Source: Octopus vulgaris (taxonomy: Eukaryota). Taken from it: 64,000 nucleotides of DNA. Shown in pieces: positions 821 to 57,523 of the stretch. The notes beneath the pieces are model-generated. The model did not search any database and had not been told where the DNA came from. It was given only the letters and a program-made list of their open reading frames with translations. Every line of letters begins with the position of its first letter. The stretch's first letter is position 1. The DNA lies in contig OX597814.1 in the NCBI GenBank assembly GCA_951406725.2, positions 198,648,001 to 198,712,000 on the forward strand, read 5' to 3'. A program made the position numbers and the translations under genes.

Positions 821-845
821 TATATATATATATATAAATATATAT

Positions 846-1138: not shown

Positions 1139-1170
1139 TTTCTCTTTCTCTCTCTCTCTGTATATATATA

Positions 1171-1292: not shown

Positions 1293-1314
1293 TATATATA
1301 TATACATATATAAA

Positions 1315-2192: not shown

Positions 2193-2203
2193 ATATATCT
2201 TAA

Positions 2204-2585
2204 TCTCTCTCTATATAAACGGCAGTTTGTCTGTGCGTTTTCTGTGTGTCTGTTTTCTCGTACCCTCACTCTGACCACGGCTTTCAACCGATTCTGATGA
2301 AACTTGACACACACATAGCCCAATGTCATAATTCAAAACTAACGCAGCGAAAATTTTGAAAAGTTCCCCCAGTTCTGAAAAAATCGATAAATTCGACATG
2401 GGGTCGAGAATCAGAAACCCAAACCACAGACCGTCTAGGGGACGCAACTCCACCTTTTTTAACTCTCAAAAAAATTTACCATCATTTTTTTTCCATTTTT
2501 TTGCTATTTTTTGGCTATAACTCTCTAAAAATGCTTTATAGTTATTTCCCTTACAAACCTGAGCAACGCCGGGCGATACTGCTAG
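2204..2585 (+). mobile_element. Non-autonomous Helitron, body type 2
   Basis: a|TC start, 3' hairpin + CTAG|t, A/T insertion site with no TSD. Near-identical to 28955-29339. Confidence 0.9.
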
Positions 2586-2790
2586 TATAATATGAAACTT
2601 TATAGTATATTGATTTGAATATCTCTGAATACACTGATGTCTATACGTCAATTTCTCCATTTACTTCTTTTACTCATTCATAAATATTTTAAATACCAAA
2701 GTATTTAGCTTTCACTAAACACTGGTGTAAACCGGAGAATTAAGGTACAAACATCCCTTAAAGGATTTTAGGCTCTTGGCATGACCTTAT

Positions 2791-2852
<62 letters not shown>

Positions 2853-2864
2853 GTTATATATAAA

Positions 2865-3195
2865 GGCGCAGGAGTAGGTATGTGGTAAGTAGCTTGCTTA
2901 CCAGCCACATGGTTCCGGGTTCAGACCTTGGGCAAGTGTCTTCTACTATAGCCTTGGGCTGGCAAAAGCCTTGTGAGTGGATTTGGTAGACGGAAACTGA
3001 GAGAAGCCCGTCGTATATATATATATATGTGTGTGTGTGTTTTCGTGTCTGTGTTTGTTCCCCCAACATCGCGGTCCGGCAAAAGAGAACGATCGAATAA
3101 GTACTAGGCTTACAAAGAATAAGTAGTAGGAATTGCTCGACTAAAAGCGGTGCTCCAACATGGCCGCAGTCAAATGACTGACACAAATAAAAGAA
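2865..3195 (+). mobile_element. tRNA-derived SINE family A (CORE-like centre, internal TA/TG microsatellite)
   Basis: ggcgcaggagt...gggttcag...ccttgggcaagtgtc...gaagcccgtcg(TA)n(TG)n...caaatgactga. Many copies in this window. Confidence 0.85.
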
Positions 3196-3202
3196 CTATA
3201 AG

Positions 3203-3266
<64 letters not shown>

Positions 3267-3556
3267 GTATGTGCGTGTATGATTTTGTATTTGTCCTCTA
3301 GTACCGCTTGACTACTAGTATTGGTTTGCTTACATTCCTGTAAGCGAGGGATTTGGCAAAATGACCTAACAGAATAAGTAACAAACCTGAAAGTAATAAG
3401 CACTAGGGATCGATCTGTTTGATCAAAACGCTTCAAGGTTGTGCTCCAGCATGGTCGCAGTCCAAACGAGTGAAACAAGTTAAAAAGAGAGGGTAAAAGA
3501 GATCTTTACACGTCATTTGTGCATCGTCGACTTTGGAAATATTTCTATCACTTTAA

Positions 3557-4140
3557 GGAGGCGAGCTGGCAGAAACGTTAGCACGCTGGGCGAAATGCTT
3601 AGCGGTATTTCGTCAGCCGTTAGGTTCTGAGATCAAATTCCGCCGAGGTCGACTTTGCTTTTCATCCTTTCGGGGTCGATAAATTAAGTACCAGTTACGC
3701 ACTGGTGTCGATGTAATCTACTTAATCCGTTTGTCTGTCCTTGTTTGTCTCCTATGTGTTTAGCCCTTTGTGGGTAGTAAAGAAATAGGTATTCCGTCTG
3801 CCGTTACGTTCTGAGTTCAAATTCCGCCGAGGTCGACTTTGCCTTTCATCCCTTCGGGGTCGATAAATTAAGTACCAGTTACGCACTGGGGTCGATATAA
3901 TCGACTTAATCCCTTTGTCTGTCCTTGTTTGTCCCCTCTATATTTAACCCCCTGCGGATAATAAAGAAATAAGAAACGTTAGCATACCGGGCGAAATATC
4001 TAGCGGTATTTCGCTTATCTTTACCTTCTGAGTTCAGATCCCTTTCGGGGTCGATTAAATTAAGTACCAGTTGCGTACCGGGGTCGATGTAATCGACTGG
4101 CCTCTCCCCTAAAATTTCAGGCCTAGAATAGAAAAGAATA
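3557..4140 (+). mobile_element. SINE family B concatemer (head + ~3 units)
   Basis: Head ggcgagctggcagaaacgttagc. Repeated unit with gagttcaaattcc (B box) and ttcatcctttcggggtcgataaattaagtaccag. Both tail variants are present. Confidence 0.85.
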
Positions 4141-4849
4141 TGTCTAGATATTTGCTTTACCTCATCACACATTTGTTACTCTTGTTCATTGAGTGGTGAA
4201 GGATGTTCACCGTAAGATTAATTTGTACATAACATCTATGCCAAAAGGACATTTTAAGTAGCTGGCTCTTTGACTAACAATTTACTAATACACACACACA
4301 CACATACACACACACACACACACATTCAAGTTAAACTCCACCTGAACTAGACGATATTTGTAAGTCTTAGTCATTTATTCCCGGTGCGACTAAAACCATT
4401 AAGGCTACTGTACATTACTCTCAATAAATCTAATTTTCTTACACATTAAATGAAAAGAAGTTGACAACATGAAAAATGAAATCGAGTTAAGAGAGCCATA
4501 GAAAATAAATTCTTGAGGTGTTATTGTTCGTCTGGCATCAAAGTATCATATAACCCCTTAAGACTATTTTGGAATAATTTAAGTCTCGTGTTGCTTCTCA
4601 CTCAGATGCTACAGATTTATACTTCAGAGTCTTCTCTTAATATCAAACTACATCTTACATTATTGCTGTTATAGAACCGCATTAGACTGCTCTTGTCGTT
4701 ATCTATTGGTTCCATTTTTGTTTTATCTCGATGATATTTCAGTTCATACTTTACTCGCCCTTACCTTCGTTCTGAAATGTCCTGGTATTATTTCTCTAGG
4801 CTGGACTTCTTTCGAGGTAGAGAAACTACTCCAGTTATGAACAGTCGTT

Positions 4850-5237
4850 GGGAATGGAAGCACTCCGTCGGTTACGACGATGAGGGTTCCGGTTGATCCG
4901 AGTCAACGGAACAGCCTGCTCGTGAAATTAACGTGTAAGTGGCTGAGCACTCCACAGACACGTGCACCCTTGACGTAGTTCTCGGGGATATTCAGTGTGA
5001 CACAGAGAGTGACAAGGCCGGCCCCTTGAAATACAGGTACAACAGAAACAGGAAGTAAGAATGAGAGAAAGTTGTGGTGAAAGAGTACAGCAGGGATCAC
5101 GACCATCCCCTGCCGGAGCCTCGTGGAGCTTTAGGTGTTTTCGCTCAATAAACACTCACAACGCCCGGTCTGGGAATCGAAACCGCGATCCTACGACCGC
5201 GAGTCCGCTGCCCTAACCACTGGGCCATTGCGCCTCC
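4850..5237 (-). mobile_element. Full-length SINE family D, tail T1, with 14-bp TSD
   Basis: TSD tatgaacagtcgtt at 4836-4849 and 5238-5251. A box tggcccagtgg and B box ggtttcgattcc on the minus strand. Confidence 0.92.
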
Positions 5238-5333
5238 TATGAACAGTCGTTAGCTGTCTACAAACACATTGGGATACCTGGAACCTATATTAACAGCAGC
5301 TGGGGCTGCTGTTAAATACATAAAAACTCGAAA

Positions 5334-5370
<37 letters not shown>

Positions 5371-5900
5371 AACAAACAAACAAACAAACAAACAAACAAC
5401 AAAAACATGTGGTTAAAGTTTTGCCACCACATAATTACAGAGTTAAGTCCCACTGCAGAGGCCCTTGGGTGTCTTCTAATATAGCCTAAGCCCGACCAAT
5501 GCCTTGTGCATGAATTTGGTTGATGGAAACTGCGTGGAAGACCGTCGTAAATATATATATATATATATATATATTGTGTGTGTGTATGATGGCGCCCCTA
5601 TAAGAAATGAAAGTAGTAACTATACTATACCACCTTTTTAACAAGTTACATCAGTTATTACAAGATCAGTGACTTCCTTTATATTGCGAGCTGGAGAGAA
5701 CTGCTGCTATCTCTAGTAGACGGCACTGAGGATGTGCATAAATAACTGTCTGGTGGTCTCACCGTTTCGCTAGAAGGAGGGGATCTGCTCCTTGCTTGCA
5801 AGATATATCAGGAGCAGATTGCATCGAGAACCAGCTGGAGGACGTCTTTCTCGGGTTAAAAACGGTTAAAAAAATGTTGAAGTAGCGATAAACATTACTG

Positions 5901-5939
<39 letters not shown>

Positions 5940-6136
5940 GAGTGAGAGAGAGAGTGTGAGAGAGAGAGAGAGAGTGTGAGAGAGAGAGAGAGAGAGAGAG
6001 CAGGGGTGGCTGCGTGGTAATAAGCTTGCTTCCACACCAAATGGTTCCGGGTTCAGTTCCACTTCTACTATATCCTAGGGCCGATCAAAGCCTTGTTAGA
6101 GTCAACGGAAAGTGAAAGAAGCCCGTCATATATATA

Positions 6137-6480
6137 TATAGAATAATGGTACAGTAAAGCACCAATGTTTACTGGAAATAACAGTCAATAAATTTACGAG
6201 GCTATAGTAAAGCTTCACTGCATACATCCTGGCAAAGATGTGTGCAGACAGCGAACATAAAAATTTCGTCTTATCGCTAGGAAGATCATTAGATGAATGG
6301 ACAACCCAGAATGGGATAATCTAGTACCTCGGTTTCGGACTCTTCAAATATGTTAGTTATCGTAAATTTGATTAGTCTTATTCAGCTTGATTTACCTGGA
6401 CAATATTCGCCTAGCCGTTAACAGAGCCGAGAACAGTGTAAATCTTTTCAACGAAAAAATTAAATATTGCAATACAGATA
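6137..6480. repeat. Dispersed repeat (second copy 59917-60432) with decayed hammerhead motif
   Basis: Colinear similarity to 59977-60340 (gcaccaatgttt, ggcaaagatgtgtg, ggataatctagtac, cgcctagccgt). Minus-strand CTGAATA...GAAAccgaggTA at 6318-6392. Confidence 0.75.
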
Positions 6481-7048
6481 TATTGCTGTCCGTTATCCGA
6501 ACTCTGTTCTGAATAGCTCGTCGTTGCGGGGCAATTTTTATGATAAAATGCCTCATATAAATCTTTGTTTATTCCATGTCAGACCATGCTTTCCCGACAG
6601 ATAGACCTCTTGATCAGGACAGATTTGTGCAATTTTTCGCAGAAAGCTTCATTGAGGATTTTATCCTTTTTTTTAAATGATTTACGTGTGTGTTCGACCG
6701 TTTCACATTACTTTAATTATTAAAACTTTTTAAAACTTCAGAAGTTCTGGCAACTTTGGTCGTAGCAATGCTTTGCTTTCATTTGTTTAATAACAATTCC
6801 TCCTCCTAATGAGTTTGCTTTCATTGTGTGACAGACAGATATCATTCAGAAAATGCCAGCTTCCAAATCCTGTTTTTTTGATGAGGTAAAAATTATTAAA
6901 CTTTAAAATTCAGTAACATATTTCAGCAATTTATCTGGAACAAATAGATATCAAAATCGGATGTTACGTGGAAAATACCAAATCTCACAACGTGTGACAG
7001 CAACAGGAAAGACCGTACAAAAATAAAGAGGCAGACAGTTATAGGACA

Positions 7049-7093
<45 letters not shown>

Positions 7094-7431
7094 TACACAT
7101 AGGTAATCAGGTGTTTAAAATGGTGTATAGTAGATGTATGTATGCATGTAGGTCTGCATGTATGTGTGTATGTCTGTGTGCGAGTGTTTCTCTGCGATGG
7201 ACAGCAGAAAAGCAACCTACCCCTCTCTCTTTAAAGCTACGTATTTCCCACACCCACCTTTTCCCCCTTCCTGGGTATTTTAAAAGTTACTTATGTGCAT
7301 TTGTGTGTGTGTGTGTGTGTGCATACCCAATGAAGGGATATAAATATCCTAGAAACAGATGTAAGACCTTCTATTTATAAATGTTCTAAAATCTACACAG
7401 CCTTGTTTTTTTATCTCATTACGAAAAAAAA

Positions 7432-7462
<31 letters not shown>

Positions 7463-8264
7463 GCGTATGTGTGTGTGTATACATACGTACATTGCATTAT
7501 GTCAAACAGATGAGGAGCGCTCAATACATGATGTGTACACACACATATATATTTATGTATATATATATATATATATACCCATACATAGGTACATTGCTCT
7601 ATGTCAAACAAATGAAAGAGGAGTGCTCAATACATGATGTGTGTGTGTGTGTGTGTGTCTGTGTTATTCAGTTATTTCTTATAATACTTTTAAAACATTC
7701 ATGTAATATCGGTTAAAATATAATTGAATGTTTACATTACACAGCTGGTTTGTAATCATAATTATCAAATTACATGAAATAAATAATATGAAGTGGACTT
7801 CATTTGAAGAAATGATTTTATAGAAACAGCGTGTCTGCAGCAGACACAATCATAAATAGTTTGGCAGAAAAAGAAAACCAGACCAAACCAGACCAGGCCA
7901 GATCAGACTTAAGTCGACCAGAGCAAATAGTTCAGTTCTATGTTTGCAATAATTTATAACGATATGAACGTATCAGCCACTGAAACAATGTTCATTAGAA
8001 AAATTTAAAAAAAAATATAGCAAGGTAACAAACGCTGATTACATTAGTGTTTTTGAAAGGATTGAAACCTCCAATGAGGATCTGAAGTTCTGGACTACAA
8101 GATGTGTTCCAGTATGCCAGATCATGGACCTTCAACTGGAAGGATTCTCTTCCAAAGCGCAGGCTTCGGAAATTGTTGTATTATGGAAGGTCAAAAGTTA
8201 CCCATGAATGCAAGTTTTTCTCTTATTCTCTACGCTTCTAATATTGTTTAAGGAAAAGATAATA

Positions 8265-8686
8265 GGCGCAGGAGTGGCTGTGTGGTAAGTAGCTTGCTAA
8301 CCAACCACATGGTTCCGGGTTCAGTCCCACTGCGTGGCATCTTCAGCGAGTGTCTTCTGCTATAGCCTCGGGCCGACCAAAGCCTTGTGAGTGGATTTGG
8401 TAGACGGAAACTGAAAGAAGCCTGTCGTATATATGTATATATATATGTGTATGTGTGTGTGTGTGTTTGTGTGTCTGTGTTTGTCCCCCTAGCATTGCTT
8501 GTCAACCGATGCTGGTGTGTTTACGTCCCCGTTACTTAGCGGTTCGGCAACAGAGATCGATAGAATAAGTACTGGGCTTACAAAGAATAAGTCCCGGGGT
8601 CGATTTGCTCGACTAAAGGCGGTGCTCCAGCATGGCCGCAGTCAAATGACTGAAGCAAGTAAAAGAGTAAAAGAGAGTAAAGAGAG
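8265..8686 (+). mobile_element. Full-length SINE family A
   Basis: Complete head (A box tggctgtgtgg, B box gggttcagtccc), internal microsatellite, 3' half ending in (gagtaaaa)n. Confidence 0.9.
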
Positions 8687-9821
8687 TTGATACTACTTAT
8701 CACCATCAGGTGTCGTGGTTGGCTTTGTGAGTGCACAGAGCCGGAACAGACATCGCAACACATCCAATCCGATACTGTAACGATTCCACTAGCACAAAAT
8801 TCAGGACACCTTTATTAATCGACCCTGAAAGAATGAAAGACATGGTTGACCTCGGTGGAATTTGAAACCAGAAAACAAATTTAGAACGAATCTAGGTTGT
8901 TTTGTTCTACACTCTAACCACTCATCCCGTACATCGATCTACTTGTATTACTGTATTGAAAACAGATTCAATGATGTTGTTCACATCCTGACTTTCACAC
9001 ACTTTCAGTTACTGAAATCAATATATTTGCAATTCGTATTGAAACATAGATTTCATTTATCTTGATTTCTATCTTTGTAATAAGGTCACACATATATATA
9101 GGGGAAATGAATGTAATTTTATGCCATTCCAACATGTTTTGAAGGCCATTAGCAACGTAACTGAATTGAAATAACTTCGAATCAGAAATCGAAGTCAACA
9201 TTACTTAGTTTACCTTTGGGTTGTATGCCAATATTAGTTAGATTTTTTGTCTGGTTATAAATGGTTTGTGTTTTGGCAGATGGAATGAAGTAAGGTTTTA
9301 AGAAGTTCTTTTCTTTTCCGAGAGTATTTATGAATGGAGTAATGTGAAATAGTTGACTGCAGCCGCGATTGAAACTACTTCCGAATTCTAGCGAAAAACG
9401 AATTTATTTTTACTTGACGGCATTTGCCAATATTGCTGTCGTATTGCATATTAATTTCTTTATTACCCATAGAAGGCTAAACATAGAGGGAAAAACAAGG
9501 ACAAAGGGATTAAGTCGATCACATTGACCTCCCAGTGCGGTGTTTCGTCTGCCTTTACGTTCTGAGTTCAAATTTCCCCGAGGTCAACCTTGCCTTTCAT
9601 CCTTTCGAGGACAATAAATTAAGTACCAGTTACATACTGGGGTCGATCTAGACGACTGGCCTCCTCCCCCAAAATGTCAAGCCTTGCGCCTAGAGTAAAA
9701 AAGAATATTATATTATATATATTATATATAATATTATATTCTGTCTTAATTTTTTTGAGATAAATTTTCCCCGAGACGCATATACTTACACCCCCATGCA
9801 ATATATCATACCTAATAATCC

Positions 9822-9987
9822 TTTCTAGTAGAGGCACAAGGCCTGAAATTTTGAGGGAGGGGGCCAGTCGATTAGATTGACCCCAGTACGCAACTGGTAC
9901 TTAAATTATCGACCCCGAAAGGATGAAAAGCAAACTATACCTCGGCAGAATTTGAACTCAGAACGTAGCGACGGGCGAAATAGCGCT
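9822..9987 (-). mobile_element. SINE family B copy (tail 2)
   Basis: Reverse complement of the B unit with the ggccccctccc...aaaatttcaggccttgtgcc tail. Confidence 0.8.
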
Positions 9988-10365
9988 ATATCGTAGTTTT
10001 TTTTATATTTAAAATGTTATGTCTTAATTCAGATACTCATCTTCAGTGACTGACTATAAAAGCTCATCATTGATTACAGAAATTGATAAAGTCCCTTATT
10101 TATGCCATGCACATACACGTACATTAAACTATATAGTAAAATGGAAAAACTTTTATTTATGGAAAAAACTTTTATTTATAGGCACAGGCGTGTATTTGTG
10201 GTAAGAAATTTGATTCGCAACCACATGGCTTTGGATTCAGTTCTGTTGTGTGATACTTTGGGCAAATGTCTTCTACTATAAAGTCGGGCCGACCAAGCCT
10301 TGTGAGTGGATTTGATAGACGGAAACTGAAAAGAGCCCGTCATGTATATGTATATATATAAATAC

Positions 10366-10550
10366 ATTATAATTTAGGGTATCTAAGTGACACCACCACG
10401 CTGAAAATAGCAGTCAAATCCTGACTCTAAAACCACATTAAATGTTCATACAGCACCAGGAGCTGTATGAACATTTAATGTGGTTTTAGAGTCAGGATTT
10501 GACTGCTATTTTCAGCGTGGTAGTATCACTTAGATACCCTAAATTATAAT
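10366..10550. repeat. Long inverted repeat (89-bp arms, 7-nt loop)
   Basis: attataatttagggtatc...catacagc accagga gctgtatg...ccctaaattataat, with 2 mismatches. Confidence 0.95.
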
Positions 10551-10690
10551 TTTAATAATAATTATTACCCCTCAAAGTTTTATTTGATAAGATTTAAATT
10601 AACGATCTTATCCTTATTTATATAAATATATACAGGGAGAATTCACAAAAAACAAAAGGCAAAGACAGGTGGTGTAGACAACAAACAGAT

Positions 10691-10729
10691 GTCTTTAATG
10701 TTTCGAGCCTATGCTCTTCCATAGAGAGG
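10691..10729 (-). ncRNA. Degenerate hammerhead-like motif, family F
   Basis: ctct CTATGGA A gagc atag gctc GAAA ca TT aaag. G5 is mutated. Confidence 0.5.
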
Positions 10730-11359
10730 AACACAGAAAGAAACAAGGAGAGAAAATAAAGAATGTGTAGTGGCTATATATATGTGTGTCTTTTGTCCCC
10801 ACCAATCGCTTGACAACCTGTACTGGTGTGTGTACGTCCCCGTAACTTAGCGGTTCGGCAAAAGGGACCGATAAATACTGGGGTTGATCCATTCATCTAA
10901 AAGTTCTGGCCACAGTCTAATAACTGAAACAAGTAAAAATATAAGACACCCAGAATTGCACTGCATAGATTCACTACTAATCTGTATCTTCAGTTTATTT
11001 CTTCTACCTACATTGCAGCAATAACTGCTTCTCTAAAATTTAGATTATTGAGCAAATACCACATCGAAATGAAACGGTCCGACAGCCGAGTCGCATCTTG
11101 CTTGTTTTACCTTTAAACCCCAAAGGAAATAACATGATAACTTTTCTTTTAAGTACATCCTACTAGTGTTTTCTTCTCGGTATTGGCATTTGCCGTTTAT
11201 CCTTTTGGGGTCGATAGAATAAATACCAGTTGAGCACTGAGATCGATATGATTGATTTACCCACTTCCCCAAAATTTCTCGTCTTGTACCAAAATTTAAT
11301 ACCATTGCTTGTAGCTTTATCTACTTCACTCCCCACCATTAAAAACGATATATATATAA

Positions 11360-11560
11360 CGGGAAGCTTTATGAAAATAAACAAAAGACGAAGGCAGGTG
11401 GAATACAAACAAACAATTGTATTAGTATGGCGCTCAGGAATATAAATAAAACAAGTCTTTTACGTTTCGAGCCTACACTCTTCAACAGAAAGATACACAG
11501 AAAAGAAACACGGAGAGAAACAAGGAGAGAAAAAAAAATGCATGGAGAGGCTAGCGAATC
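11360..11560 (-). mobile_element. (TA)-associated Penelope-like terminal-repeat fragment, family F
   Basis: Homologous to 10633-10775, 23965-24134 and 59618-59810. All copies abut (TA)n and carry the same hammerhead-like motif. Confidence 0.65.
11456..11493 (-). ncRNA. Minimal type I hammerhead-like ribozyme, A6U variant
   Basis: tcttt CTGTTGA A gagt gtag gctc GAAA cg TA aaaga: 5-bp stem I, 4-bp stem II, CG stem III, GUA triplet. Confidence 0.65.
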
Positions 11561-12652
11561 AACATGCTTGACCTCCAGACCCTTTCGAATGAACAACAGA
11601 GAATCCACGGCTCCATACATTGAAATGACAAAACATTATTGAACACTCAAAAACATAACATGTTTCCTTTTCATGCAATCAGGAAGTGTATGGCTCCTTC
11701 ACCACAGACTTGGAAAAATCTTCCCAATTTTATACTCTGTAGGTAAGCCAATCATGGTTACGCTAAATGGTGACTAATAGGTATATTTTAAGGTTTAAAC
11801 TCAATGAAAGTACAATGAAAGTACAAGGGTTAATTTGCTTCCCCGATTACTCTCTGTTCGTATAAGAGTTTTGAGTGATAAATGTAGGCCAAAATAGTTA
11901 ATTAACCTCCTCTACTTGATAAAAAAAATATCTATTTAGCACCTCATACAGCATGTCAAATGTGTACAGTTCTAGAAAAAGATAATCATTATTAATCAAA
12001 GTTAATTAAGAAAAAATACAAAGAAGCAAAAAAGAAACATTAAAAATCAAAGAACAAAACTATTCTCTTAACATTTCCTTATTTTTTTAACGGAAAATTT
12101 ATAGAAGGAAATCTAAAAGCAGTAGGATATACATCTTAATTAGCGAATGATTAAAGTTCATTTCCGAGCGATAATTTTCTTTTTAACATGTAGATAACAT
12201 TCACGCTAGGACACAATGCATCTACAGTTGGTTAATCAGTTTCGTTTAGGAAACTACTCAACTAATGTTTTGCATAAAATAACATAGTTATATCCATAGA
12301 ACTTTTCTTCACCTTTACACGCGTTATTATCAGAAGATAATCGAACGCTATCCCAAGGGATATTGCTGTAAACACGCACACACATTATGTACGTCAAAAC
12401 AATTTACAAACTTCGAGAGAGACACGAAATAAATCGCTTTTAACGTTTTTTAACAAAATAAATCGTTTTTGACGGTGAAGCGCGAAGCTATGAATAGTAG
12501 TGTGTAAAGAAATCTGAAGGATTGCTTTGGTACAATATTAGTAAGTCGGTCATGCTTACAAAATATATAGGTTCAAGTCCCACAGTAGCGCTAGACTTTA
12601 TCCATTCAAGGGTGTTTGTAACTTAATATTTATGCACTATTATTGGTAACTT

Positions 12653-13025
12653 GGCAGAATCGTTAGCACGCCGGGCGAAATGCTTAGCGGTATTTCGTCT
12701 GCCGTTACGTTCTGAGTTCAAATTCCGCTGAGGTCGACTTTGCCTTTCATCCTTTCGGGGTCGATAAATTAAGTACCAGTTACGCACTGGGGTCGATATA
12801 ATCGACCTAATCCGTTTGTCTGTCTTTGTTTGGCCCCTTGTGGGTAGTAAAGAAATAGGTATTTCGTCTGTCTTTACGTTCCGAGTTCAAATTCCGCCGA
12901 GGTCAACTTTGCCTTTCATTATTTCGGGATCGATTAATTAAGTACCAGTTGCGTACTGAGGTCGATCTAATCGACTGGCCCTCCACTCCCCCAAAATTTC
13001 GGTCTTTGTTCCTAGAGTAGAAAAG
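12653..13025 (+). mobile_element. SINE family B dimer with 14-bp TSD
   Basis: TSD attattggtaactt at 12639-12652 and 13026-13039. Unit+tail 1 followed by unit+tail 2. Confidence 0.9.
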
Positions 13026-13640
13026 ATTATTGGTAACTTTCAAAAGACGGCGTGCTGGCAGAAACGTTACCGCACAGAGCAAAATACTTAGCACAATTTC
13101 GTCCGTCTTTACATCCTGAGTTCAAATTCCACCGAGGTCGACTTTGCCGTTTGTCCATTTAGGGTCGATAGAATAGATACCAGTTGAGCACTGAGGTTGA
13201 TGATATATAAATTGCTCGTCTTGTGTCAAAATTTGAAACCATTGTTTGTAGCTTTATCTACTTCACGCCCCACCATTAAAAACGATATATATATATACAT
13301 ATATGTTCTTGACCCCTAGCCACAAGTTAAACTTTGTACTTGAGATTTTTATTCACACCACAAGACCCTTTCGAATGAACAACACAGAATCCACGGCTCC
13401 ATACATTGAAAGGATAAAACACTATTGGAACTTACATACCATATACAGGGCCTTTTTTTTACCACTTCTATCACCACTTTCCTCGAAGAATAGAACTGAA
13501 ACTACAATATCTTCATATATTTTATATTCTATTTCTATTTTCATTCTCTTATTTCCCTCTATATTCCCTATCTCCTCCTTTTCCATAATACTTCCTTATT
13601 TCGAACTCAAATATTTACCTCTATTCAATCATCTCACACC

Positions 13641-13688
13641 GTCTCTGATGAAGGGATATCCATAATATCCCAGAAACAGCTGTAAGGC
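13641..13688 (+). ncRNA. Type I hammerhead ribozyme (canonical core) in a Penelope-like repeat at ~13440-13760
   Basis: gtct CTGATGA a gggatat..atatccc a GAAA cagctg TA aggc. Palindromic stem III, GUA triplet. Confidence 0.8.
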
Positions 13689-14612
13689 TACATCTATATA
13701 CTCCTCACAGCCTTGGATTTGTTATCTCATTTTGTCTAATATATATTAGATATATTAATAAAATAGAATATCATATATATATATAAATACACACATATAC
13801 ATGTACGGACACACACACACACGTACATATATACTGATGTTTCTTTTAATAGAAAAATAACGTATCTGAGTTAACAACATGTTCAGCTCTAAATGAATAT
13901 CGGTGTATTATAAAACAAATAAGTTAATTATTTGTTTTATATAATTACAGAGGAAGTTACATAAAAAATATTATTGAACATTTTCTTTCGATCAGTCATT
14001 CTTTTATTCGTTTACAATGATTAATGATTGTTCACAGATTTTAATTGCAACAATTCCTGGCTTATATCGATTTCCTTAAGTTTCTCATCCACCATCAATT
14101 TATCTATTGCATATGTCCGTGTCCCTTTGAATAGAAATTGATTTTAGAAGGAAGGTATAAGAAATTAATGAGAAAGATTTAAATTTGCTCTATTGTGTGA
14201 TACATATAGAACAGCTGAAATTAGTTATCTACGCTGATTCTGTTTAAATTTTCTTCTCGCCATCATGTACCATGCTTTCACTCCGTCTGTAGATGCTATA
14301 ATGAAATACTAATGCTACAGTTAATGTCATTATATACAGCCTAACACAAATTGAAAAAAAATTGCTATACAACAAATTTCTTTTCAAAATTGTCAATAAA
14401 AATAGATGAAAACTGTTTTTTCTTGTTTAGCATTGTGAGAGATCAGAATAATGGGGAAATGTTTCAATCAGAACCATTGTTACAGCTATATTTATTCTTT
14501 AACACTATTAAACAAAAACATACACTGCTGCTACCACAACCGGCCTGTGCTAGCTCCATTAGAAATAGCAACCAAATCTTCGCAAACGATATCGTACATT
14601 GTGGTTCTAGTT

Positions 14613-14870
14613 CACTGGTTCTTAACCGGGGTCCATAATATGATCTGTGGAGGGGTCCCATATAAGATTTTGTTGTTAAAATTTATCTGCAATAAATTGG
14701 TTATACTTCTTCACTACACAAAATATTAGAAAAAGTTTTTAATACAATTCCTAATAATATTTCATTATAAAAATATGCGATTTTTTAAAACACTGATTGG
14801 CTATGAGGGTCCATTCGAGTAAAATAGGAATCAAACAGGTTCGTGGGTAAAAAGTGACTGAGAACCTCTG
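14613..14870. mobile_element. hAT-type MITE
   Basis: TIRs cactggttcttaacc / gactgagaacctctg. 8-bp TSD ttctagtt (14605-14612) / gtctagtt (14871-14878). Confidence 0.8.
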
Positions 14871-14987
14871 GTCTAGTTATACAAATTTCAGGTTGGTTAT
14901 GAGTGGAACGGCTTTGATCCTAGGTATATTCGACCAGAGCTGCTCTGGGAATAAGCAACAACAACTACAACAACAACAACCACTCCG

Positions 14988-15485
14988 TGGAGGCTCAATG
15001 GCCCAGTGGTGAGGGCAGCGGACTCGCGATCTTAAGAGCGCGGTTTCGATTCCCAGACCGGGCATTGTGAGTGTTTGTTGAGCAAAAACACCTAAGCTAA
15101 GTTCCATGAGACTCCGGCAGTGGGTGGGGGTCAACCCCGCTGTACTCTTTCACCACAACTTTCTCTCATTCTTTCTTCCTACTTCTGCCACAAAGTAGAG
15201 GAACCATGGTGTAACCCACTATGGCGTGGTAAACTTTCAGACCCTAGTCTAAATTGCGAATCTTCTGTACCCAAAGATGGTTCAGCTCTCCACCCGTTAA
15301 AAGCCACCGTTTACGGAATGAGGATAACAACGTAGCTTTCGCACCCGAGCAACCGCCAGTCTAACGCGTGTGGTGGGTGGATCTTCAAGTTGCCGCACGC
15401 ATTCTTAGTAGCCTAGACTAGGCTCGAATTAGAGATTATTCTTTGTGGCTAATGGCGTGAGTCCTGATTGGAAGAAGAAGAAGAC
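14988..15485 (+). mobile_element. SINE family D with unique ~300-bp tail T4 ending (GAA)n
   Basis: D head and body to ~15180, then sequence not found in other D copies, ending gaagaagaagaag. Confidence 0.7.
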
Positions 15486-16036
15486 AAGAACCACTCCTGT
15501 CTCCCTCACCACTCACTACAACTGCTGTCATAACTTACAATTACAACTAACATAAACCGAAAGCTAGTTTCCTTCTATTTCCGAGATTGCTGTAAAACAC
15601 CGTCGTGGAGAAATTATCTCGATTAAATGTATTTCGGTAGGTTTTGAAAGTGAGTTAGGCTGGAAGTGAAGCAACAGCTAGTTGTCCTCTAATTACAATG
15701 GTTTACTGTCTTTTCATTCATCATATATATGCTGAAGAGGTTGAAGAGTCACGTGTTATATTTTATACAAAATGATTCTCAAATCACTAAGGAAATCGAG
15801 GTAGTTTTATCCAACAATGCCAGGTTAATCAATAAGATAATTACTCGTAATGAAGTTTAATTTAAGACCAGTGAATATATCATTATACGAAGATTTAAAA
15901 TGATTCCTTATACCTGTGTGGAACAATGCCAAACAACAGGTAAATGTAATTAATATTAATGGATTATAGATAATTAGTTATATATCAGGATGTGTTGTAA
16001 GAAGAAAAGTTTAGAAATCGCGACCATAATGAATAT

Positions 16037-16403
16037 TCTTTTACTTGTTTCAATCATTTGACTGCGGCCATGTTGGAGCACCGCCTTTTAGTGGAACAAA
16101 TCGACCCCAGGACTTATTCTTTGTAAGCCTAGCACTTATTGTATCGATCACTTTTGCTGAACCAGTAAGTTACGGGTTTATACACACATAAGCATAGGTT
16201 GTCAAGCGATGCTGGGGGGGGGGGCAAACACAGACACACAAACATATATATATATATACGACGGGCTTCTTTCAGTTTCCGTCTACCAAATCCACTCACA
16301 AGGCTTTGGTCGGGCCAAGGCTATAGTAGAAGACACTTGCCCAAAGGTGTCACACAGTGGGACTTAACCCGGAACCATGTGGTTGGTAAGCCACTCCTGC
16401 GCC
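16037..16403 (-). mobile_element. SINE family A
   Basis: Reverse complement of the family A consensus, with a partly deleted head. Confidence 0.85.
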
Positions 16404-18042
16404 TATATAATAACAGAATAAAATATAAAATAACAGTGTGGCGCCAACGCTGTTATTCTAAGCATTCGAGAAATTACACTTCACTGGGAATTTATTGTTT
16501 TTTTTAGAATATTATTTCGTGTGTTCTCATCCTCCACTGGCTGCTTTAAGTTTTCTGAATGTTTGAACGTAGTTTCGTTTACTTACCAATGTATTCGGGA
16601 TTGTAGCTATGTTCCACCTTTAAGCTGGAATGAAAGTCTTTGTATTTGCTTCTTTGTTTCTTAGACGGAATGTAGATACTTGCGTTTCCACAGGATCAAT
16701 AATTAAATGATTATCTTTATTACAGTAATAGATTACATTGTTTAAATGCATACACGGGGTCGTCTGGATGTCAATGAAATTTTCCGTTTAGCATACAGTG
16801 TACAGATAAAACGATTAGTGTTATCGTCTTTCGGTTGAACATCTATTCATCCAATACGCTGCACTGAAACAGACCAATTCGTAATTTTCGCGTGCAGCTT
16901 TTGTTATTGCTTATCAGCAGGAAACGTCTATTTCTTATCATAATATCGATAAATCATGTGAGTTCCGTGTCATATGTTAAACTATGTATCTTTTAACTTA
17001 TTTCAAAGTGCACTGAGAACGACAAAATCCGTTCCTTTAATTGTTCCTTTGTTCACGCTCGTCTTGAGCAAGATTGAGTACTTGCCTCATAACTGACCCT
17101 CCAGGAGAGAATTCAGTTTGTTCTTTAAATATTTTCAACGCTGTTGAAGCTCCGCGTGGAATTAATCGATGAGAAATCGTGTAAAGGCAACGAAGGAAGG
17201 AAATCAACCTGACATTCTCCGTTAATGAGTATTATTTCCGAGGTTTCAAAAAAGCTATTCCTTTGCTTTTCCTCCTCACTTTTGGAAATTTGTGCATGAG
17301 AAGACAGTTATTAAAAAGCCTGGTTAGTCCTATTTATCATCTGGTCCGTGAAGATATTATTAAGATAAATTGTTTTCTCAGTTCTTATGATGAGACATTG
17401 ATGGGTTTTTTTTGTATGGGAAGCCTATTATAAAAACGAAATTTCAGTTCATGATTTTTTCTTCAGATAAATCATTTTTGTTATTTGATGCGCTTTACTG
17501 TTTATTACCACTAGGATAGACAGCGAAATAGTAGCATCGTTAGAGTGTTGGATAGACTACCTCGCAGTATTTATTTCCCCTCTCAGCGGTTCCTAGTTCA
17601 AATCTTACCGAAGTGAACTTCGCCTTTCGAGATCGATAACAAAGCATTAGTTCAGGGTGAGTGTTTGGTGGATCGAATAGTATCTTGCGTTATCTCTTTT
17701 GTTCCGGTTTTATACATTCAGTTCAAACCCTGTCGCGTTACCGAAAGATGGGGGATCTTCTTCCAGGCATTGCGTCTGACAGGTAGTATCAGTAAATTAG
17801 AAAACTAATGGAAATGTAATTACTTTTATTTGATGCGAAGATCGATGGAGGTGGTAGTGGTAGCAGTACCACTACCACCACCATCATCGTCACTACCACC
17901 ACCGTTACCACCATCACCACCAGCATCAACCGTCACCACCACCACAAGTTTTTTGTGCAACATTATTGTGATATTCCTTCGGTTTCCCCAAATCAGCACC
18001 TACATTTTGTATGAAGGGGCCATACTTTCTGGCTGTTTCTAT

Positions 18043-18235
18043 TTATCGTATTTGATGACATAAAAGACGCACGAGCATATTAGACGCATCTCAATTTCAG
18101 TAGCACATATTCAGAGAAGACTCTTTTTCGTGCATTCAAGGGAAAGCCCAACGTCGTATGTAGGACCTAGGGTGATGTTTTGAGACATTTATTTGGGACA
18201 AAAAGTGTGGTTTATGTGCCCTGAAGTAACGTGTA
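18043..18235. mobile_element. Possible decayed pogo/Tigger-like MITE
   Basis: Degenerate inverted ends tatcgtattt...aaaagacgcac / gtgtggtttat...aacgtgta. Confidence 0.35.
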
Positions 18236-18256
18236 TTTGTGGATTGCCCTAAATTG

Positions 18257-19096
18257 TTTTATTATTACCCACAAGGGGCAAACATAGAGGGGACAATACA
18301 ACCTGATGTGGGGTCAGATTAACGAATGGGTTTACAAAAAGGCGAATTAAAAAATTTACAAAACTTACAAAAATAGCAAAATCGAATGAGGAACAGACCG
18401 GAAGACATTACGGATGGAGTGGGGGCGGGTTCAGCTCGGACCCCACGAGCCCCGCCTCCCCACTGATACTTTGGTTTCGTCTAGTTTTACATTTATGTGG
18501 TATCATCTCGCAACTTTCGTGCTACATCTTTCCATCGTTCTTCATACCCTCTCTTAGTCAGGCATTTTCTCTCCAGCCCTATCTTCCTTTTCAGGTGAAA
18601 GATGAAGTAATTCATCAATCCAGGGCCGGCGATGAACTTGCCTGACCGTAAACCTTTCATTCTCGTCTTCCATATCACCTCTTTCGCAATTGCTACTACA
18701 ACGAGAAAACAATTCTTACCTTCTTTCGCGAGGAAATCTGGTGGGTCAATTTTTATAATAGACTCAGTCGACAGCTGTACTCTTCGTGTGCTTGACAACA
18801 GCTATTCGGCATAAACCCACACCTCAGACACGACCGAACAATGAACAATAGCGTGCGGGACGGTTTCTCTATCCCGCTCGCATCTTGGACATATCGGACT
18901 GTCTTGGCCACCGTGCCTTGCGAGTTTATCCCGAACAGGTAGAGCTCCTCTGTAGCATTGCCATGCCAGAGACTTCTGGAAGTTGTCCAGTGTCTTCGGC
19001 TCGAACGTACGTCGGAACAGACTGGCCAGCTGATTATCGTCGAGACCTAGGGTTTCCCCCAAGGTATCTTCACATTCCGCCTCTAACTTCTTATAC
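18257..19096 (-). mobile_element. 5'-truncated L1-clade (Tx1-like) LINE
   Basis: ORF2 C-terminus, then a 3' UTR with a GC hairpin (18419-18463), then terminal tail ttgtcccctctatgtttgccccttgtgggtaataataaaa. Confidence 0.85.
18493..19096 (-). pseudogene. LINE ORF2 C-terminal zinc-knuckle (zf-RVT-like) region
   Basis: LAWQCYRGALPVRDKL...CPRCERDRETVPHAIVHC...VW...IAKEVIWKTR...RW. ORFs 18802-19185 and 18493-18798 are in the same frame, separated by one TAG. Confidence 0.85.
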
Positions 19097-19276
19097 ATTG
19101 CTATTTGATTACTAGAAGACGTTATACTGGGGGCTGTATCCACGTTTCCAACATCCAATGTTGAATGATTTTGTATGTCTAGCATTAAGACGAAATAGTT
19201 GCTTTCTGCTCAGGAATAAACTTCTTTTCCACCCGAGTTAATAAGTTAGCAATCCCATTGATTATTATGGCGAGTA

Positions 19277-19410
19277 AAATTTCCAGTGATAAATCCTAGG
19301 TCTGATGAGTTTTTAAGTGGCACTCCAGAAATCCGGTGTTTTATAAAACACCGGATTTCTGGAGTGCCACTTAAAAACTCATCAGACCTAGGATTTATCA
19401 CTGGAAATTT
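19277..19410. repeat. Perfect 134-bp palindrome with no spacer
   Basis: Centre at 19343/19344 (gtgttttataaaacac). The 67-bp arms are exact reverse complements. Confidence 0.97.
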
Positions 19411-19712
19411 GATACATATGATTACGGCTTTTACCAAATCCAACTGCATCTTTACGACAATGTTACTGCCATTGCCATACTTATAATGGAATTCCTGTTT
19501 TTCATAGATATCGCACTTTCATATTCCTTACGTGCTTGATAATTTGCTATAAGCCTTACCTTCATTTAATAATTTACGATCTAACGTTCTGTCGTCCTCT
19601 GCACGTTAGAATCTTATTGCTATATCCATGCCTTTAATTTTATCCCTGTTGTTCAGAAGGCTTTCATGTCTTTCCATCTTTCATAAACTGGTTGTTCAGT
19701 TGTCATAATGTA

Positions 19713-20053
19713 GCGGAGTAAGATCCGCTTGGAGAGGAAGTCCCTGTCTCAAGTTCTGTTTCAAAAACAGATGGACGCATGTAGTAAGAATGATGCGAGT
19801 GGGAGGTGTCGAGCTGATGTAGCCGGTTCTGGGGGAAAAAAGGAAAAGGTATGAAAACAGCCGGCGGGTTGATTAGAACCCCGTACCTGATTTTTATCTT
19901 ACTTCGATTTTCCGACTTTTATTTATCTTCGACTTTTATTATATTCATATTCTTTATGATTTAAAAAAAACGACTTCATTGTAACAAACTCTATGTGTTG
20001 TGGTGTCCATGTTCGTCCCCTCTATGTTCGTCATGTATAGACAAATAAAGAAA
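19713..20053 (+). mobile_element. Second 5'-truncated Tx1-like LINE with 17-bp TSD
   Basis: Encodes RSKIRLERKSLSQVL/FKNRWTHVVRMMRV, homologous to KRKIGLERKCLT...ERWKDVARKLR of the 18.5-kb LINE. TSD tcagttgtcataa(t/c)gta at 19696-19712 and 20054-20070. Confidence 0.85.
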
Positions 20054-21625
20054 TCAGTTGTCATAACGTAACACTTAATTTTAGATCTGATGTTTTTTGG
20101 GCCATTTTGAGTTTCTTGTAAGACTTGTTTTATATGACTTTGTTCCCAAAAGGCTAGAGACCACTGTAGCATGAGGGGCTACAAAGAAGAAAAAGAAAGG
20201 GCCCACAAATTCAAATGATATTGATTAACAGAGAGATAAAAAGAGTGAATATCATAGTCTAGAGGAAACCAAGACGATAGTTGTAAGTTCCAGAGAATAA
20301 TAAAAAAGGTATTAGAATAAAAGAACTTATGACTAACAAGACACTCATCAGAGAAACGATGCACCTGGAAAGGTAAGCGGTGGTGACTCGTTAAAGGTGT
20401 TGACAGAGGGTACTAGACCAGAAGCTTTATTTGAGGAATGACCCTAGAAATACTTATAGGAAAGTAAGTCACGTTGGAAGGTTTTACTTTATTTTGCAAA
20501 TGGATGATGGTATGTATTCTTTCATTAAAGAGCATCCTTCAAAGTTTATTGATAAGACAGTTATCTATGATTTTATTTTGTTCAGAAATCACCAAACAGT
20601 TGCTATTATGTTAAACTGTTGTATGTCCAAATTTGGCCAAATGCATTTTTTTCAGTATTTAATTAGCCCGTTCTTTGGATCAAACTATCGTATCTCCAGC
20701 TGCTTCAGATGCCAAGATATGAAAATTGTCAAAGAGTAGTGCAATGGTTTAGCATTTTTGAAAAGTGTAGTAAGTCTTTCATATGACAATTTTGCAAAAA
20801 TATTTCTGACTAAAAATATCTGAAAATATCATACAAGCATTTTATGTACCCAACAAAGTATAATTGTTAAGCTGAAACTGCTGCTGACGTAAAAAGAAAT
20901 GGATGGTGAAACTATTTTTTCGTTTTCTGAAAAATTAACGTTTTTGACTTACGACACTTTTTGCATAATAGCTACGAATTATTGTTTAGAAAAGAGTTAG
21001 ACTGAAAGAGTGAAAAATATTACACAATTAAGTTTGGTAGAATTCTTTGGAAACTTCTGACAGGAGCAGTGACAGGAATGCTGGAACTGTGACTGCTTTT
21101 AAATTCTATTATAGTATAAGATTGACTGGAATCTTTTGTCACGATATTGGTCTATAAAAATGAGGATTCCAAATCAACTAGATTGATTTACTTGAAATGC
21201 CATCTGTAAGAAATATTCAGTGATTATGTGAGTGAGAACCAGTGTTATAATTCTTTTGGATAAAGCACGAGTGATGCAAGATCTGATTGCTTTCTTAAAA
21301 GAAACCCCCAAAGCGGCAGGCTTCTTACTTGTAGGCGGATTAGAAGTTGACATTGCACAGAGAGACATTGGCAGAAATGTTATAGCGACCGACAAATTAC
21401 GTTACTATCGTTAGTTTAGATTCTTTATTCTACGGGTTAAAATCCCGAAAATGTCAATACATACCCTTAAAATATATGGCCTCAATTAAAAATTAGTATT
21501 GTGGAGAGTTTATGGGATCAGTCTTGTGATGAAATTGAATTCTTCAGAGAAATGGAGGTGTTTTGAAGTAAGAAAGGGCAATTTAAATCATTACTTTAGC
21601 TTATGATTATACATTCTAAAATACA

Positions 21626-31828: not shown

Positions 31829-32413
31829 GGCGATGAGCTGGCAGAAGCGTTAGCACGCCGGGCGAAATGCTTAGCTGTATTTCGTCCGCTTTTACGTTCT
31901 GAGTTCAAATTCCGCCGTGGTCGACTTTGCCTTTCATCCTTTCGGGAGCGATTAAATAAGTACCAGTTACGTACTGGAGTCGATGTAATCGACTTAACCT
32001 GTTTGTCTGTCCTTGTTTGTTCCCTCTGTGTTTAGCCCCTTGTGGGTTGTAAATAAATAGGTGTTTCGTCTGCCGTTACGTTCTGAGTCCAAATTCCGCC
32101 GAGGTCAACTGTGCCTTTCATCCTTTCGGGCTCGATAAGTTAAGTACCAGTTGCGTACTGGGGTCGACTGGTACCCTCCCTCAAAATTTCGGGCCTTTTG
32201 CCTATACTGGAAAAGAAACGTTAGCACGCCGGGCAAAATGCTTAGCGGTATTTCGACTGTTTTTATGTTCTGAGTTCAAATTCCACTGAGGTCGACTTTG
32301 CCTTTCATCCTTTCAGGGTCGATAAATTAAGTAGCAGTTAAATACTGGCGTCGATCTAATCGACTGGGTCTCTCCCACCAAAAATTTCGGGCCTTGTGTC
32401 TAGAGTAGAAAAT
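31829..32413 (+). mobile_element. SINE family B trimer
   Basis: Three B units. Flanked by the imperfect duplication tattg(g/t)tttcgaat. Confidence 0.85.
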
Positions 32414-34096: not shown

Positions 34097-34513
34097 GGGC
34101 GGCGAACTGGCAGAATCGTTAGCACGCCGGGCGAAATGCGTAGCCTTACTTCGTCTGCCGTTACGTTCTGAGTTCAAATTCCGCCGAGGTCGACTTTGCC
34201 TTTCATCCTTTCGGGGTCGATTAATTAAGTACCAGTTATGTACTGGGGTCGATATAATCGACTTAATCCGTTTGTCTGTCCTTGTTTGTTTTCTCTGTGT
34301 TTAGCTTTTTGTGGGCAGTAAAGAAATAAGTATTTCGCCTGCCTCTACGTTCTGAGTTCAAATTCCGCCGAGGTCGACTTTGGCTTTCATCCTTTCGGGG
34401 TCGATTAAATAAGTACCAGTTACGTACTGGAGTTTGATGCAATCGACTTAATCCCTTTGTCTGTCCTTGTTTGTCCCCTCTATGTTTAGCTCCCTGTGTG
34501 AAATAAAGAAATA
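34097..34513 (+). mobile_element. SINE family B dimer
   Basis: Head + two units, each with tail 1. Confidence 0.88.
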
Positions 34514-36334: not shown

Positions 36335-36730
36335 TTTCTTTATTACTCACAAGGGTGATAAAGGGGACAAACAAGGACAGACAAACGAATTATTACATCG
36401 ACCCCAGTGCGTAAGTGGTACTTAATTTATCGACCCCAAAAGGATGAAAGACAAAGTCGACCTCGGCGGAATTTGAACTCAGAGCGTAACGGCAGACGAA
36501 ATGCCTATTTCTTTATTACCCACAAGGGGCTAAACATAGAGGGGACAAACAAGGGCAGACAAACGAATTATTATATCGACCCCAGTGCGTAACTGGTACT
36601 TAATTTATCGACCCCAAAAGGATGAAAGGCAAAGTCGACCTCAGCGGAATTTGAACTCAGAACGTAATGGCAGACGAAATACGGCTACGCATTTCGCCCG
36701 GCGTGATAACATTTCTGCCAGCTCGCCGCC
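36335..36730 (-). mobile_element. SINE family B dimer with TSD
   Basis: tagaca(a/t)tgacaata at 36318-36332 and 36734-36748. Confidence 0.88.
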
Positions 36731-44346: not shown

Positions 44347-44570
44347 GAGCTGGCAGAAGCGTTAGCGCGCCGGGCGAAATGCTTAGCGGTATTTCGTCTG
44401 TCGTTACGTTCTGAGTTCAAATTCCGCCGAGGTCAACTTTGCCTTTCCTCCTTTCGGGGTCGATAAATAAAGTACCAGTTACGCACTGGGGTCGATGTAA
44501 TCGACTTAACCCGTTTGTCTGTCCTTGTTTGTCCCGTCTATGTTTAGCCCCTTGACGGTAGTAAAGAAAT
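44347..44570 (+). mobile_element. SINE family B monomer
   Basis: Head + unit + tail 1. Confidence 0.88.
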
Positions 44571-45440: not shown

Positions 45441-45674
45441 TATTTCTTTACTACCCACAAGGGGCTAAACACAGAGGGGACAAACAAGGACAGACAAAGG
45501 GATTAAGTCGACTACATCGACCCCAGTGCGTAACTGGTACTTAATTTATCGACCCCGAAAGGATGAAAGGCAAAGTCGACCTCGGCGGAATTTGAACTCG
45601 GAACGTAACGACAGACGAAATACGGCTACGAATTTCGTCCGGCGTGCTAACGTTTCTACCAGCTCGCCGCCTTG
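45441..45674 (-). mobile_element. SINE family B monomer with 13-bp TSD
   Basis: aatggcaaatata at 45428-45440 and 45675-45687. Confidence 0.9.
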
Positions 45675-48465: not shown

Positions 48466-48878
48466 GGCGGTGAGTTGGTAGAAACGTTAGCTTGGCCGCG
48501 AGCTAGCGGTATTTCGTCTGCTGCTACGTTCTGAATTCAAATTCCACCGAGGTCGACTTTGCCTTTTATCCTCTCGGGGTCGATAAATTAAGTACCAGTT
48601 ACGCACTGGGGTCGATATAATCAACTTAATCCCTTTGTCTGTCCTTGTTTGTCCCCTCTCTGTTTAGCCCCTTGTAGGCAATAAAGAAATAGGTATTTCG
48701 TCTGCTGCTACGTTCTGAGTTCAAATTCCACCGAGGTCGACTTTGCCTTTCATCCTTTCGGAGGTTGATAAATTAAGTACCAGTTACGCACTGGGGTCGA
48801 TATAATCAACTTAATCCCTTTGTCTGTCCTTGTTTGTCCCCCTCTATGTTTAGCCCCTTGTGGGCAATAAAGAAATAA
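48466..48878 (+). mobile_element. SINE family B dimer with 15-bp TSD
   Basis: aatggttagggaatt at 48447-48461 and 48880-48894. Confidence 0.9.
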
Positions 48879-57108: not shown

Positions 57109-57523
57109 TATTTCTTTATTGCCCACAAGGGGCTAAACTTAGAGAGGACAAACAAGGACTGACAAAGGGATTAAGTCGATTATATGAACCCCAGTGCGCA
57201 ACTGGTACTTATTTAATCGACTCCGAAAAGATGAAAGGCAAAGTCGACCTCGCCGGAATTTGAACTCAGAACGCAACGGCAGACGAAATACCTATTTCTT
57301 TACTACCTTCAAGGGGCTAAACACAGAGAAGACAAACAAGGACAGACAAACGGATTAAATCGATTACATCGACCCCAATGCGTAACTGGTACTTAATTTA
57401 TCGACCCCGAAAGGATGAAAGGCAAAGTTAACCTCGGCGGAATTTGAACTCAGAACGTAGCGGTAGACGAAATACCGCTAAGCATTTCGCCCGGTGTGCT
57501 AACGTTTCTGCGAGCTTGCCACC
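57109..57523 (-). mobile_element. SINE family B dimer with ~27-bp flanking duplication
   Basis: agtgttgttagtaaaaaggtgtcttct (57082-57108) vs agtgtttttagtaaaaaaaagtgtcttct (57530-57558). Confidence 0.88.

Follow-up and report, generated by a model that had tools for sequence, protein, structure and literature searches.

Tx1-like long interspersed nuclear elements (LINEs) of Octopus vulgaris and SINE B, an abundant short interspersed nuclear element (SINE) of the same genome, end in a common 3' tail, and we consider it quite probable that the second open reading frame (ORF2) proteins of these LINEs recognise the tail and would copy SINE B in trans. The stretch analysed (the window) comprises 64,000 nt, contig coordinates C1:198648001-198712000, within a 2.8-Gb assembly. 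It holds copies of SINE B and two LINE copies, LINE 1 and LINE 2, which to judge from their sequences are 5'-truncated members of a multi-family L1-group radiation (Table 1).

The 3' tail of the LINEs recurs in SINE B

In 25 sampled LINE family ends, the tail has one layout: a pyrimidine box, then a short predicted stem-loop whose letters vary, then AATAAAGAAAT, with no poly(A). A zf-RVT profile search of the genome, in which the best 150 of 25,801 candidates were scored, was complemented by 40 extra loci and two family searches, which brought in more tail-bearing families. Nearly all families end 170-340 nt after ORF2 in the box, the short stem-loop and AATAAAGA(A)AT. A LINE-tail profile scored 26 of 30 zf-RVT loci and 29/30 and 30/30 loci of two further families, in the first of which the tail was seen by eye in 26 of 30. 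In 134 loci, 124 ends were called and not one had a run of 10 A after the tail, a census made with a loose pattern that 89 of 172 random chunks also match, so that the profiles are preferred.

The parent of LINE 1 (family 1) is a 5.1-kb Tx1-like element, seen in 20 longer loci. It has an ORF1, and its ORF2 (about 1130 aa) carries APE (Exo_endo_phos), reverse transcriptase (RT; RVT_1) and zf-RVT domains. All 30 family 1 loci found with a query devoid of the tail end in it, with 11 different classes of 3' flanks by eye, although 19 of the 30 share one site in a Helitron-like host of ~740 bp and their ends are thus not independent. ORF1-only elements of about 2 kb also end in the family 1 tail. 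LINE 2 represents a second Tx1-like family (family 2), whose protein is about 55% identical to that of family 1 where relatives of LINE 2 extend upstream; LINE 2 itself retains about 36 codons with a frameshift, plus the 3' untranslated region (UTR). The tail is present in 12 of 14 family 2 loci, in several of them after an inserted repeat, and is absent from L036 and L042 within the DNA fetched. Both LINE ends quoted in the initial annotation are present in the sequence, and to its question of whether all copies end in the motif these counts answer that most do.

The tail is the normal 3' end of the LINEs themselves. With SINEs being abundant and 15 of their tails lying in the window, the LINE ends might have been chance SINE fragments in single copies. 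We give this explanation next to no credence, because family-specific tail variants follow the end of ORF2 at a distance of 170-290 nt in nearly all copies, without a SINE body ahead of them and within the target-site duplication (TSD).

In the window, a profile built only from the 25 LINE family ends recognised both LINEs and 15 SINE tails (E 4e-12 to 9e-4), whereas the reversed window gave no match. Conversely, a profile built from 13 window SINE tails reached at least 10 bits on 18 of the 25 LINE family ends, on 0/25 CR1/RTE ends (a usable end being available in 25 of 30 loci) and on 0/25 shuffles. In thirty R4/Dong-like loci, the UTR is a different one and (TAA)n forms the end, the sole profile match being an adjacent SINE; this family has 69,052 candidates in the genome. 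A CR1-like family (949 aa; L161 and others) ends in its own hairpin and (ATT)n.

The initial annotation held that the terminal motif is selectively kept. This does not follow from the two LINEs alone, which have an identity of 0.60 over the 40 nt preceding AATAA, compared with 0.50-0.62 in upstream windows. It does hold over the 25 family ends (0.64 in the tail vs 0.52-0.57 upstream) and in comparison with the SINE tail, to which LINE 1 and LINE 2 are 0.78 and 0.71 identical vs 0.47-0.62 for upstream windows, by a crude window measure. In the best alignments with SINE tails, 39/41 nt of LINE 1 (E 2e-10) and 23/25 nt of LINE 2 (E 7e-4) are identical, with exact runs of 18 and 14 nt, respectively. 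The longest exact runs are found elsewhere, namely 28-30 nt in L266 (5' half of the SINE tail) and 24 nt in L095 and L092 (3' half). Better matches to the SINE tail thus exist outside the two window families, which makes it improbable that these are its exact donors; because the best exact matches are divided in this way, the donor would be a relative of the window LINEs, or else the tail would be a mosaic. Families carrying the 3' half include intact ORF2s (1132-aa frames).

SINE B

SINE B is a short, non-coding, high-copy element with a TSD. Its 229-nt monomer has A- and B-box-like motifs by eye, and no tRNA was detected in its head by ARAGORN or Rfam. Ohshima and Okada reportedly described the tRNA-derived octopus SINEs OR1 and OR2 in 1994, and SINE B is likewise an abundant octopus SINE, which may be one of the two. 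SINE B may also resemble the Deu/Nin-domain SINEs.

A 21-nt piece of tail 1, the tail form shared with the LINEs, has at least 80,825 exact occurrences in the genome (control, 0), a number that includes both units of dimers and some LINEs. The SINE tail given in the initial annotation is the majority form, from which the copy at 48821-48876 departs by one extra C. Of 67 SINE B body matches in the fetched DNA, 26 carry tail 1, 19 tail 2 and 16 other ends, and 6 are truncated. At least 40 copies nearly identical to the monomer at 45443-45671 form a young subfamily. Since the young variant carries AGTAAA, an intact poly(A) signal is unnecessary.

Tails 2 and 3 (12859-13010 and 32214-32400 in the window; loci L195-L224) have the same CTTGT loop, set in a stem that is reversed (GGGC/GCCT, GGC/GCC). 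The end of tail 2 is AAAAGAAT, as is that of the Tx1-like family F111 described below. From these sequences, both tails may also be Tx1-related. In five SINE B dimers, the second unit always begins at about monomer position 49, with a spacing of 184 nt, and a single TSD encloses the whole dimer.

Placement of the LINEs in the L1 group

The best solved-structure match of ORF2 is human L1 ORF2p (E 5e-65 over residues 4-870). The match to the R2 structure is weaker (E 3e-25), and CR1-like and RTE-like control proteins from the same genome reached only 2e-18 and 1e-22. The placement of the RT in the L1 group by the initial annotation is in line with these values. A separate ORF1, 5' truncation and TSDs, about 10-20 nt long in that group, are further L1-group features of these elements. 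In an RT tree of 43 rows (21 of 120 homologues used; three rows fill less than half of the columns), 18 genome rows form one clade with P0001 and a protein of Argonauta hians, the closest named protein (98/98), and this clade is split from the CR1- and RTE-like rows at 96/97; the tree is devoid of reference Tx1 (Tx1L, Keno, Kibi/Koshi) and vertebrate L1 rows. Its only TX1-labelled row, P0080, bears an automatic name, is 39% identical and sits on a long branch. ESM Atlas and cluster look-ups yielded no clade name. The zf-RVT domain was dropped as a clade diagnostic, because an R4-like protein matches it too.

ORF1 proteins of the Tx1 clade have a CCHC zinc knuckle, unlike mammalian-type ORF1. 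Here, zf-CCHC exceeds the cut-off in L103, L095 and L045 and is weak in family 1 (E 0.06). We thus use 'Tx1-like' as a label suggested by the ORF1 zinc knuckle, by target preferences and by the annotation of O. vulgaris, which in the accessible part of its description counts L1-Tx1 among the active LINE groups (PMC13282606).

The tail stem-loop

At least four Watson-Crick pairs closing at most 3 nt from AATAA are present in 16 of the 25 family ends; these ends were hand-picked and are related to each other, so that the stem counts are not independent. The corresponding counts were on average 3.6 in shuffles, with a maximum of 9 in 500, and 2-6 at upstream positions. The stems vary between families (GCCC/GGGT, AACC/GGTT, ACCT/AGGT, GATT/AATC, GATC/GATC, CCTT/AAGG). 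A MAFFT alignment of 24 tails set the stems out of register, and no pairs were counted on it. The predicted hairpin is thermodynamically unremarkable. Because the layout and a stem with changing letters are kept across families, recognition is probably based partly on shape and partly on sequence.

An RNA 3'-processing or stability signal, consisting of AATAAA and an upstream U-rich box, might also be kept at this position; the SINE would then have inherited it once, and ORF2p would work in a relaxed mode and accept any 3' end that is suitable. AATAAA is indeed nearly invariant in the LINE ends, the hairpin is weak, and SINE B copies with tail 2 have similar TSDs in spite of their different tail. 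Nevertheless, such a signal is an unlikely reason for the conservation of the tail, since no poly(A) is copied and the copies end 0-3 nt after AATAAAGAAA, not at a cleavage site further on. In addition, the stems change letters yet keep pairing, and a SINE transcribed by RNA polymerase III keeps about 50 nt of tail in the places counted above, at least 80,825 in number, including the AGTAAA variant. Among sequencing runs, none from RNA was listed as a holder; contigs from four runs span LINE and tail and are uninformative on transcript ends.

Insertion signature and targets

LINE TSDs, called with one mismatch allowed, are 13-25 nt long and start 0-3 nt after AATAAAGAAA. Incidental SINE B copies with tail 1 have a TSD of at least 10 nt in 9/16 cases (null, 19/400). 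The motif with which the TSDs begin tends to differ between families. The 3/3 clear LINE 2 copies start with CAGT and several L259-type copies with TCT; CAATT is the start in family 1, ATT that in F111 and TAT that in young SINE B. Such starts could come from a preference of the endonuclease as well as from pairing between the end of the RNA and its target. Older relatives (L271, L281, L283) are followed by TATA.

The LINEs prefer repeats, microsatellites and RNA genes as targets. Thus, (ATT)n follows 30/30 loci of F111, a Tx1-like copy in L128 ends directly before a full-length U1 small nuclear RNA (snRNA) gene (Rfam, 125 bits; L128:3896-4059), and family 1 has its Helitron-like site, part of whose share of loci may reflect copying by the host. 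F111 (L111, L285-L314) is a very young family of 1145 aa with many identical C-termini, in tandem arrays about 5.87 kb apart. In a young 1140-aa family (L100-L104, L116, L117, L121), found in tandem on C2 near 73.05 Mb, the same flanking sequence always follows, with no Rfam match. Related families (L012, L086, L099, L114, L118, L120, L130) end before similar repeat-like sequences, which suggests further transposon targets.

The Helitron-like host (L045, L046, L049, L053, L057, L059, L064) has TC...hairpin-CTAG ends. Family 1 LINEs and ORF1-only elements occupy one site in it, often in tandem, a situation that recalls Tx1L in Tx1D. Some composites of LINE and host look copied by the host itself; some family 1 loci are copies of such composites, since 7 of the 12 long loci with the right part of the host also hold its left part. 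In L060 and L062, which have common flanks, a family 1 copy adjoins an ORF that was judged Penelope-like by eye and gave no match in Pfam.

Proposed mechanism

We propose that SINE B acquired its tail from a Tx1-like LINE by template switching. ORF2p would bind the box and the hairpin and nick DNA with its APE domain, and target-primed reverse transcription would begin slightly beyond AAAGAAAU, by a few bases. The ORF1-only elements, which bear the same tail, would likewise ride in trans. More speculatively, the few RNA bases that come after the tail might pair with the DNA at the nick; the family-specific motif at the start of the TSD would then be accounted for. The SINE-LINE partnership suggested by the initial annotation is supported at the level of sequence, with neither a majority of copies ending elsewhere nor an RT outside the L1 group having been found; mobilisation itself is what we infer.

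Besides the dependence among family ends and among family 1 loci, the looseness of the census pattern and the make-up of the tree, a number of observations weigh against recognition of the tail by these ORF2 proteins. Seven of the 25 LINE families score below 10 bits on the SINE profile, and the whole SINE tail is present in no sampled LINE, its 5' half fitting one lineage and its 3' half another. The six tails that were folded are no more stable than shuffles (z -0.07 to -1.45), and for one SINE tail a different fold is favoured. For truncated family 1 loci in the Helitron-like host, read-through past the tail is possible. The tail comparison covered Tx1-like, CR1-like, RTE-like and R4-like LINEs, with L2, I/Nimb, Hero and R2 outside the sample. 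As for the comparison of TSDs and targets between LINEs and SINE B, which the initial annotation had called for, the range of TSD lengths fits, and it does so for tail-2 SINE B as well (at least 10 nt in 12/14; null, 6/300; 14 of 30 loci used, 16 dropped as no head was found), so that TSD length is not tail-specific. Young tail-1 copies have such TSDs in 27/30 cases, at (TA)n sites where the null is 158/400. TATAT follows 27/30 of these young copies and was seen in no sampled young LINE family, so that these sites are unmatched.

This last observation, together with the fact that the searches scored the best 40-150 candidates, would fit a SINE tail derived from a Tx1-like LINE and present copies made by an unsampled LINE, of another clade or of a (TA)n-targeting lineage. 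We hold that to be quite improbable: the tail is unrelated to the ends of the other three LINE types in the sample, intact ORF2s accompany the 3' half of the SINE tail, and the older relatives mentioned above do precede TATA. Recognition and copying by Tx1-like ORF2 proteins is therefore the explanation that we retain.

A broader scheme is offered as a tentative possibility, about which we are doubtful. An animal L1-group ORF2 would pick its templates by a tiny hairpin-and-box tail lacking poly(A) and prime by pairing of the 3' end, and a single radiation would drive all tail forms of SINE B as well as the ORF1-only passengers. If this were true, the 3' end of each passenger would steer its own landing site, and animal L1 relatives would exhibit a living 'stringent' state, comparable with the solved structures of human L1 ORF2p.

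Features of the window

The coordinates are collected in Table 1. The initial annotation described a 17-bp TSD around LINE 2; its length is correct, while its two copies are identical at 16 of 17 nt and not throughout. No TSD was found for LINE 1 at the window locus. Extension of LINE 1 to 19277 was ruled out, as family matches cease at 19085, and positions 19090-19700 gave no other match in the genome search. The DNA between the two head-to-head LINE fragments includes a perfect 134-bp palindrome without spacer (19277..19410), with a single occurrence in the genome search. The palindrome lies in flank DNA, belongs to neither LINE and may result from fold-back repair or be an assembly artefact.

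Table 1. LINE and SINE B features in the window
Feature	Position	Strand	Remarks
LINE 1	18255..19085	-	833-bp 5'-truncated copy, boundary at about 18255; holds the ORF2 end (one stop in frame), the 3' UTR and the tail
LINE 1, ORF2 C-terminal part with CCHC (zf-RVT) motif	18496..19085	-	translation and zf-RVT match
LINE 1, stop codon	18493-18495	-	
LINE 1, tail	18256..18308	-	pyrimidine box, stem-loop, AATAATAAAAC
LINE 1, stem	18279-18267	-	GCCC/GGGT, loop CTTGT; part of tail
LINE 2	19713..20053	+	about 340 bp, 5'-truncated; second Tx1-like family
LINE 2, left TSD	19696..19712	+	
LINE 2, right TSD	20054..20070	+	16/17 identical
LINE 2, tail	19999..20053	+	profile match
LINE 2, stem	20030-20042	+	one mismatch here; GTCT/AGAC in sister copies L032, L033, L034, L039
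SINE B dimer	3557..3970	+	tails 3732-3785, 3914-3970
SINE B tail 1	9455..9508	-	profile match
SINE B tail 1, shortened	12815..12856	+	within dimer ending in tail 2
SINE B tail 1	32005..32057	+	within multimer ending in tail 2
SINE B dimer	34098..34511	+	tails 34274-34326, 34456-34511
SINE B dimer	36335..36730	-	tails 36561-36508, 36384-36335; 15-nt TSD
SINE B monomer	44347..44569	+	tail 44516-44569
SINE B monomer, young subfamily	45443..45671	-	tail 1 (AGTAAA variant); 13-nt TSD
SINE B dimer	48466..48876	+	tail 1 at 48635-48690, 48820-48876; 17-nt TSD, one mismatch
SINE B dimer	57110..57523	-	tails 57348-57295, 57166-57110

Comparison with known systems and significance

Human L1 recognises a poly(A) run. 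The published systems considered here are compared through the accessible parts of the respective papers. Tail-sharing pairs of the L1 clade are described in plants and algae, with ZmSINE2/3 and LINE1-1_ZM in maize and sorghum and SINEX-3_CR and L1-1_CR in Chlamydomonas (PMC3747384, PMC3472496). As in octopus, an L1-clade LINE and a SINE have about 50 terminal nt in common. The plant and algal SINEs are of tRNA type, with a hairpin that shows compensatory changes, and stringent recognition was inferred, not assayed. In contrast with those pairs, which end in (A)n or (T)n, the octopus elements are from an animal and have no poly(A), and they appear to form a Tx1-like radiation of many families with ORF1-only passengers.

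In crocodilians, SINEU has been attributed to Tx1-Mar via shared targets, and in the part of that report available no LINE with the 3' end of SINEU-1 was found (PMC4494074). Other transposons, microsatellites and snRNA genes are the preferred targets of Tx1 families there, and the LINEs described here resemble them in this respect. Unlike SINE B, which is linked to its LINEs by a shared tail, SINEU has poly(A) and snRNA heads (PMC4494074). Stringent pairs of the L2, CR1 and RTE clades, such as eel UnaL2 and the bivalve SINEs (PMC3747384, PMC4824008, PMC11481361), resemble the octopus system in their common 3' tail with a stem-loop and in the exchangeable tails of one SINE body. They involve other LINE clades, the bivalve partners being CR1, CR1-Zenon, L2 and Nimb. 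More generally, the partners given in papers on mollusc SINEs are CR1, L2, Nimb and RTE elements (PMC4758252, PMC4824008, PMC11481361, PMC5786205), and the word Tx1 does not occur in the available text of PMC11481361 and PMC5786205. HAL1 (half-L1) elements are non-autonomous, ORF1-only LINE derivatives (PMC5786205); the ORF1-only elements found here are similar to them in this respect, but unlike HAL1 they retain the tail of a Tx1-like family with its predicted stem-loop.

No tail-sharing pair of a Tx1 LINE and a SINE was found in the literature searched, and the available parts of PMC8967140 and PMC3531059 held nothing further on this subject; one may be described in Repbase Reports, in the 1994 paper on octopus SINEs or in supplements. 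By sequence, the octopus pairing itself is well supported as a candidate stringent SINE-LINE partnership.

Sequences from plants and algae have served to argue over whether L1 derived its poly(A) recognition from tail recognition (PMC3472496, in the part available). This question would become testable with an animal relative of L1 that has intact young copies, a SINE passenger and a 50-nt tail whose stem varies naturally. SINEs represent 11.6% of the O. vulgaris genome, no partners being named in the parts of that report that were searched (PMC13282606). In octopus-type genomes, much of the SINE load may have its driver in the Tx1-like radiation, which is a candidate for this role.

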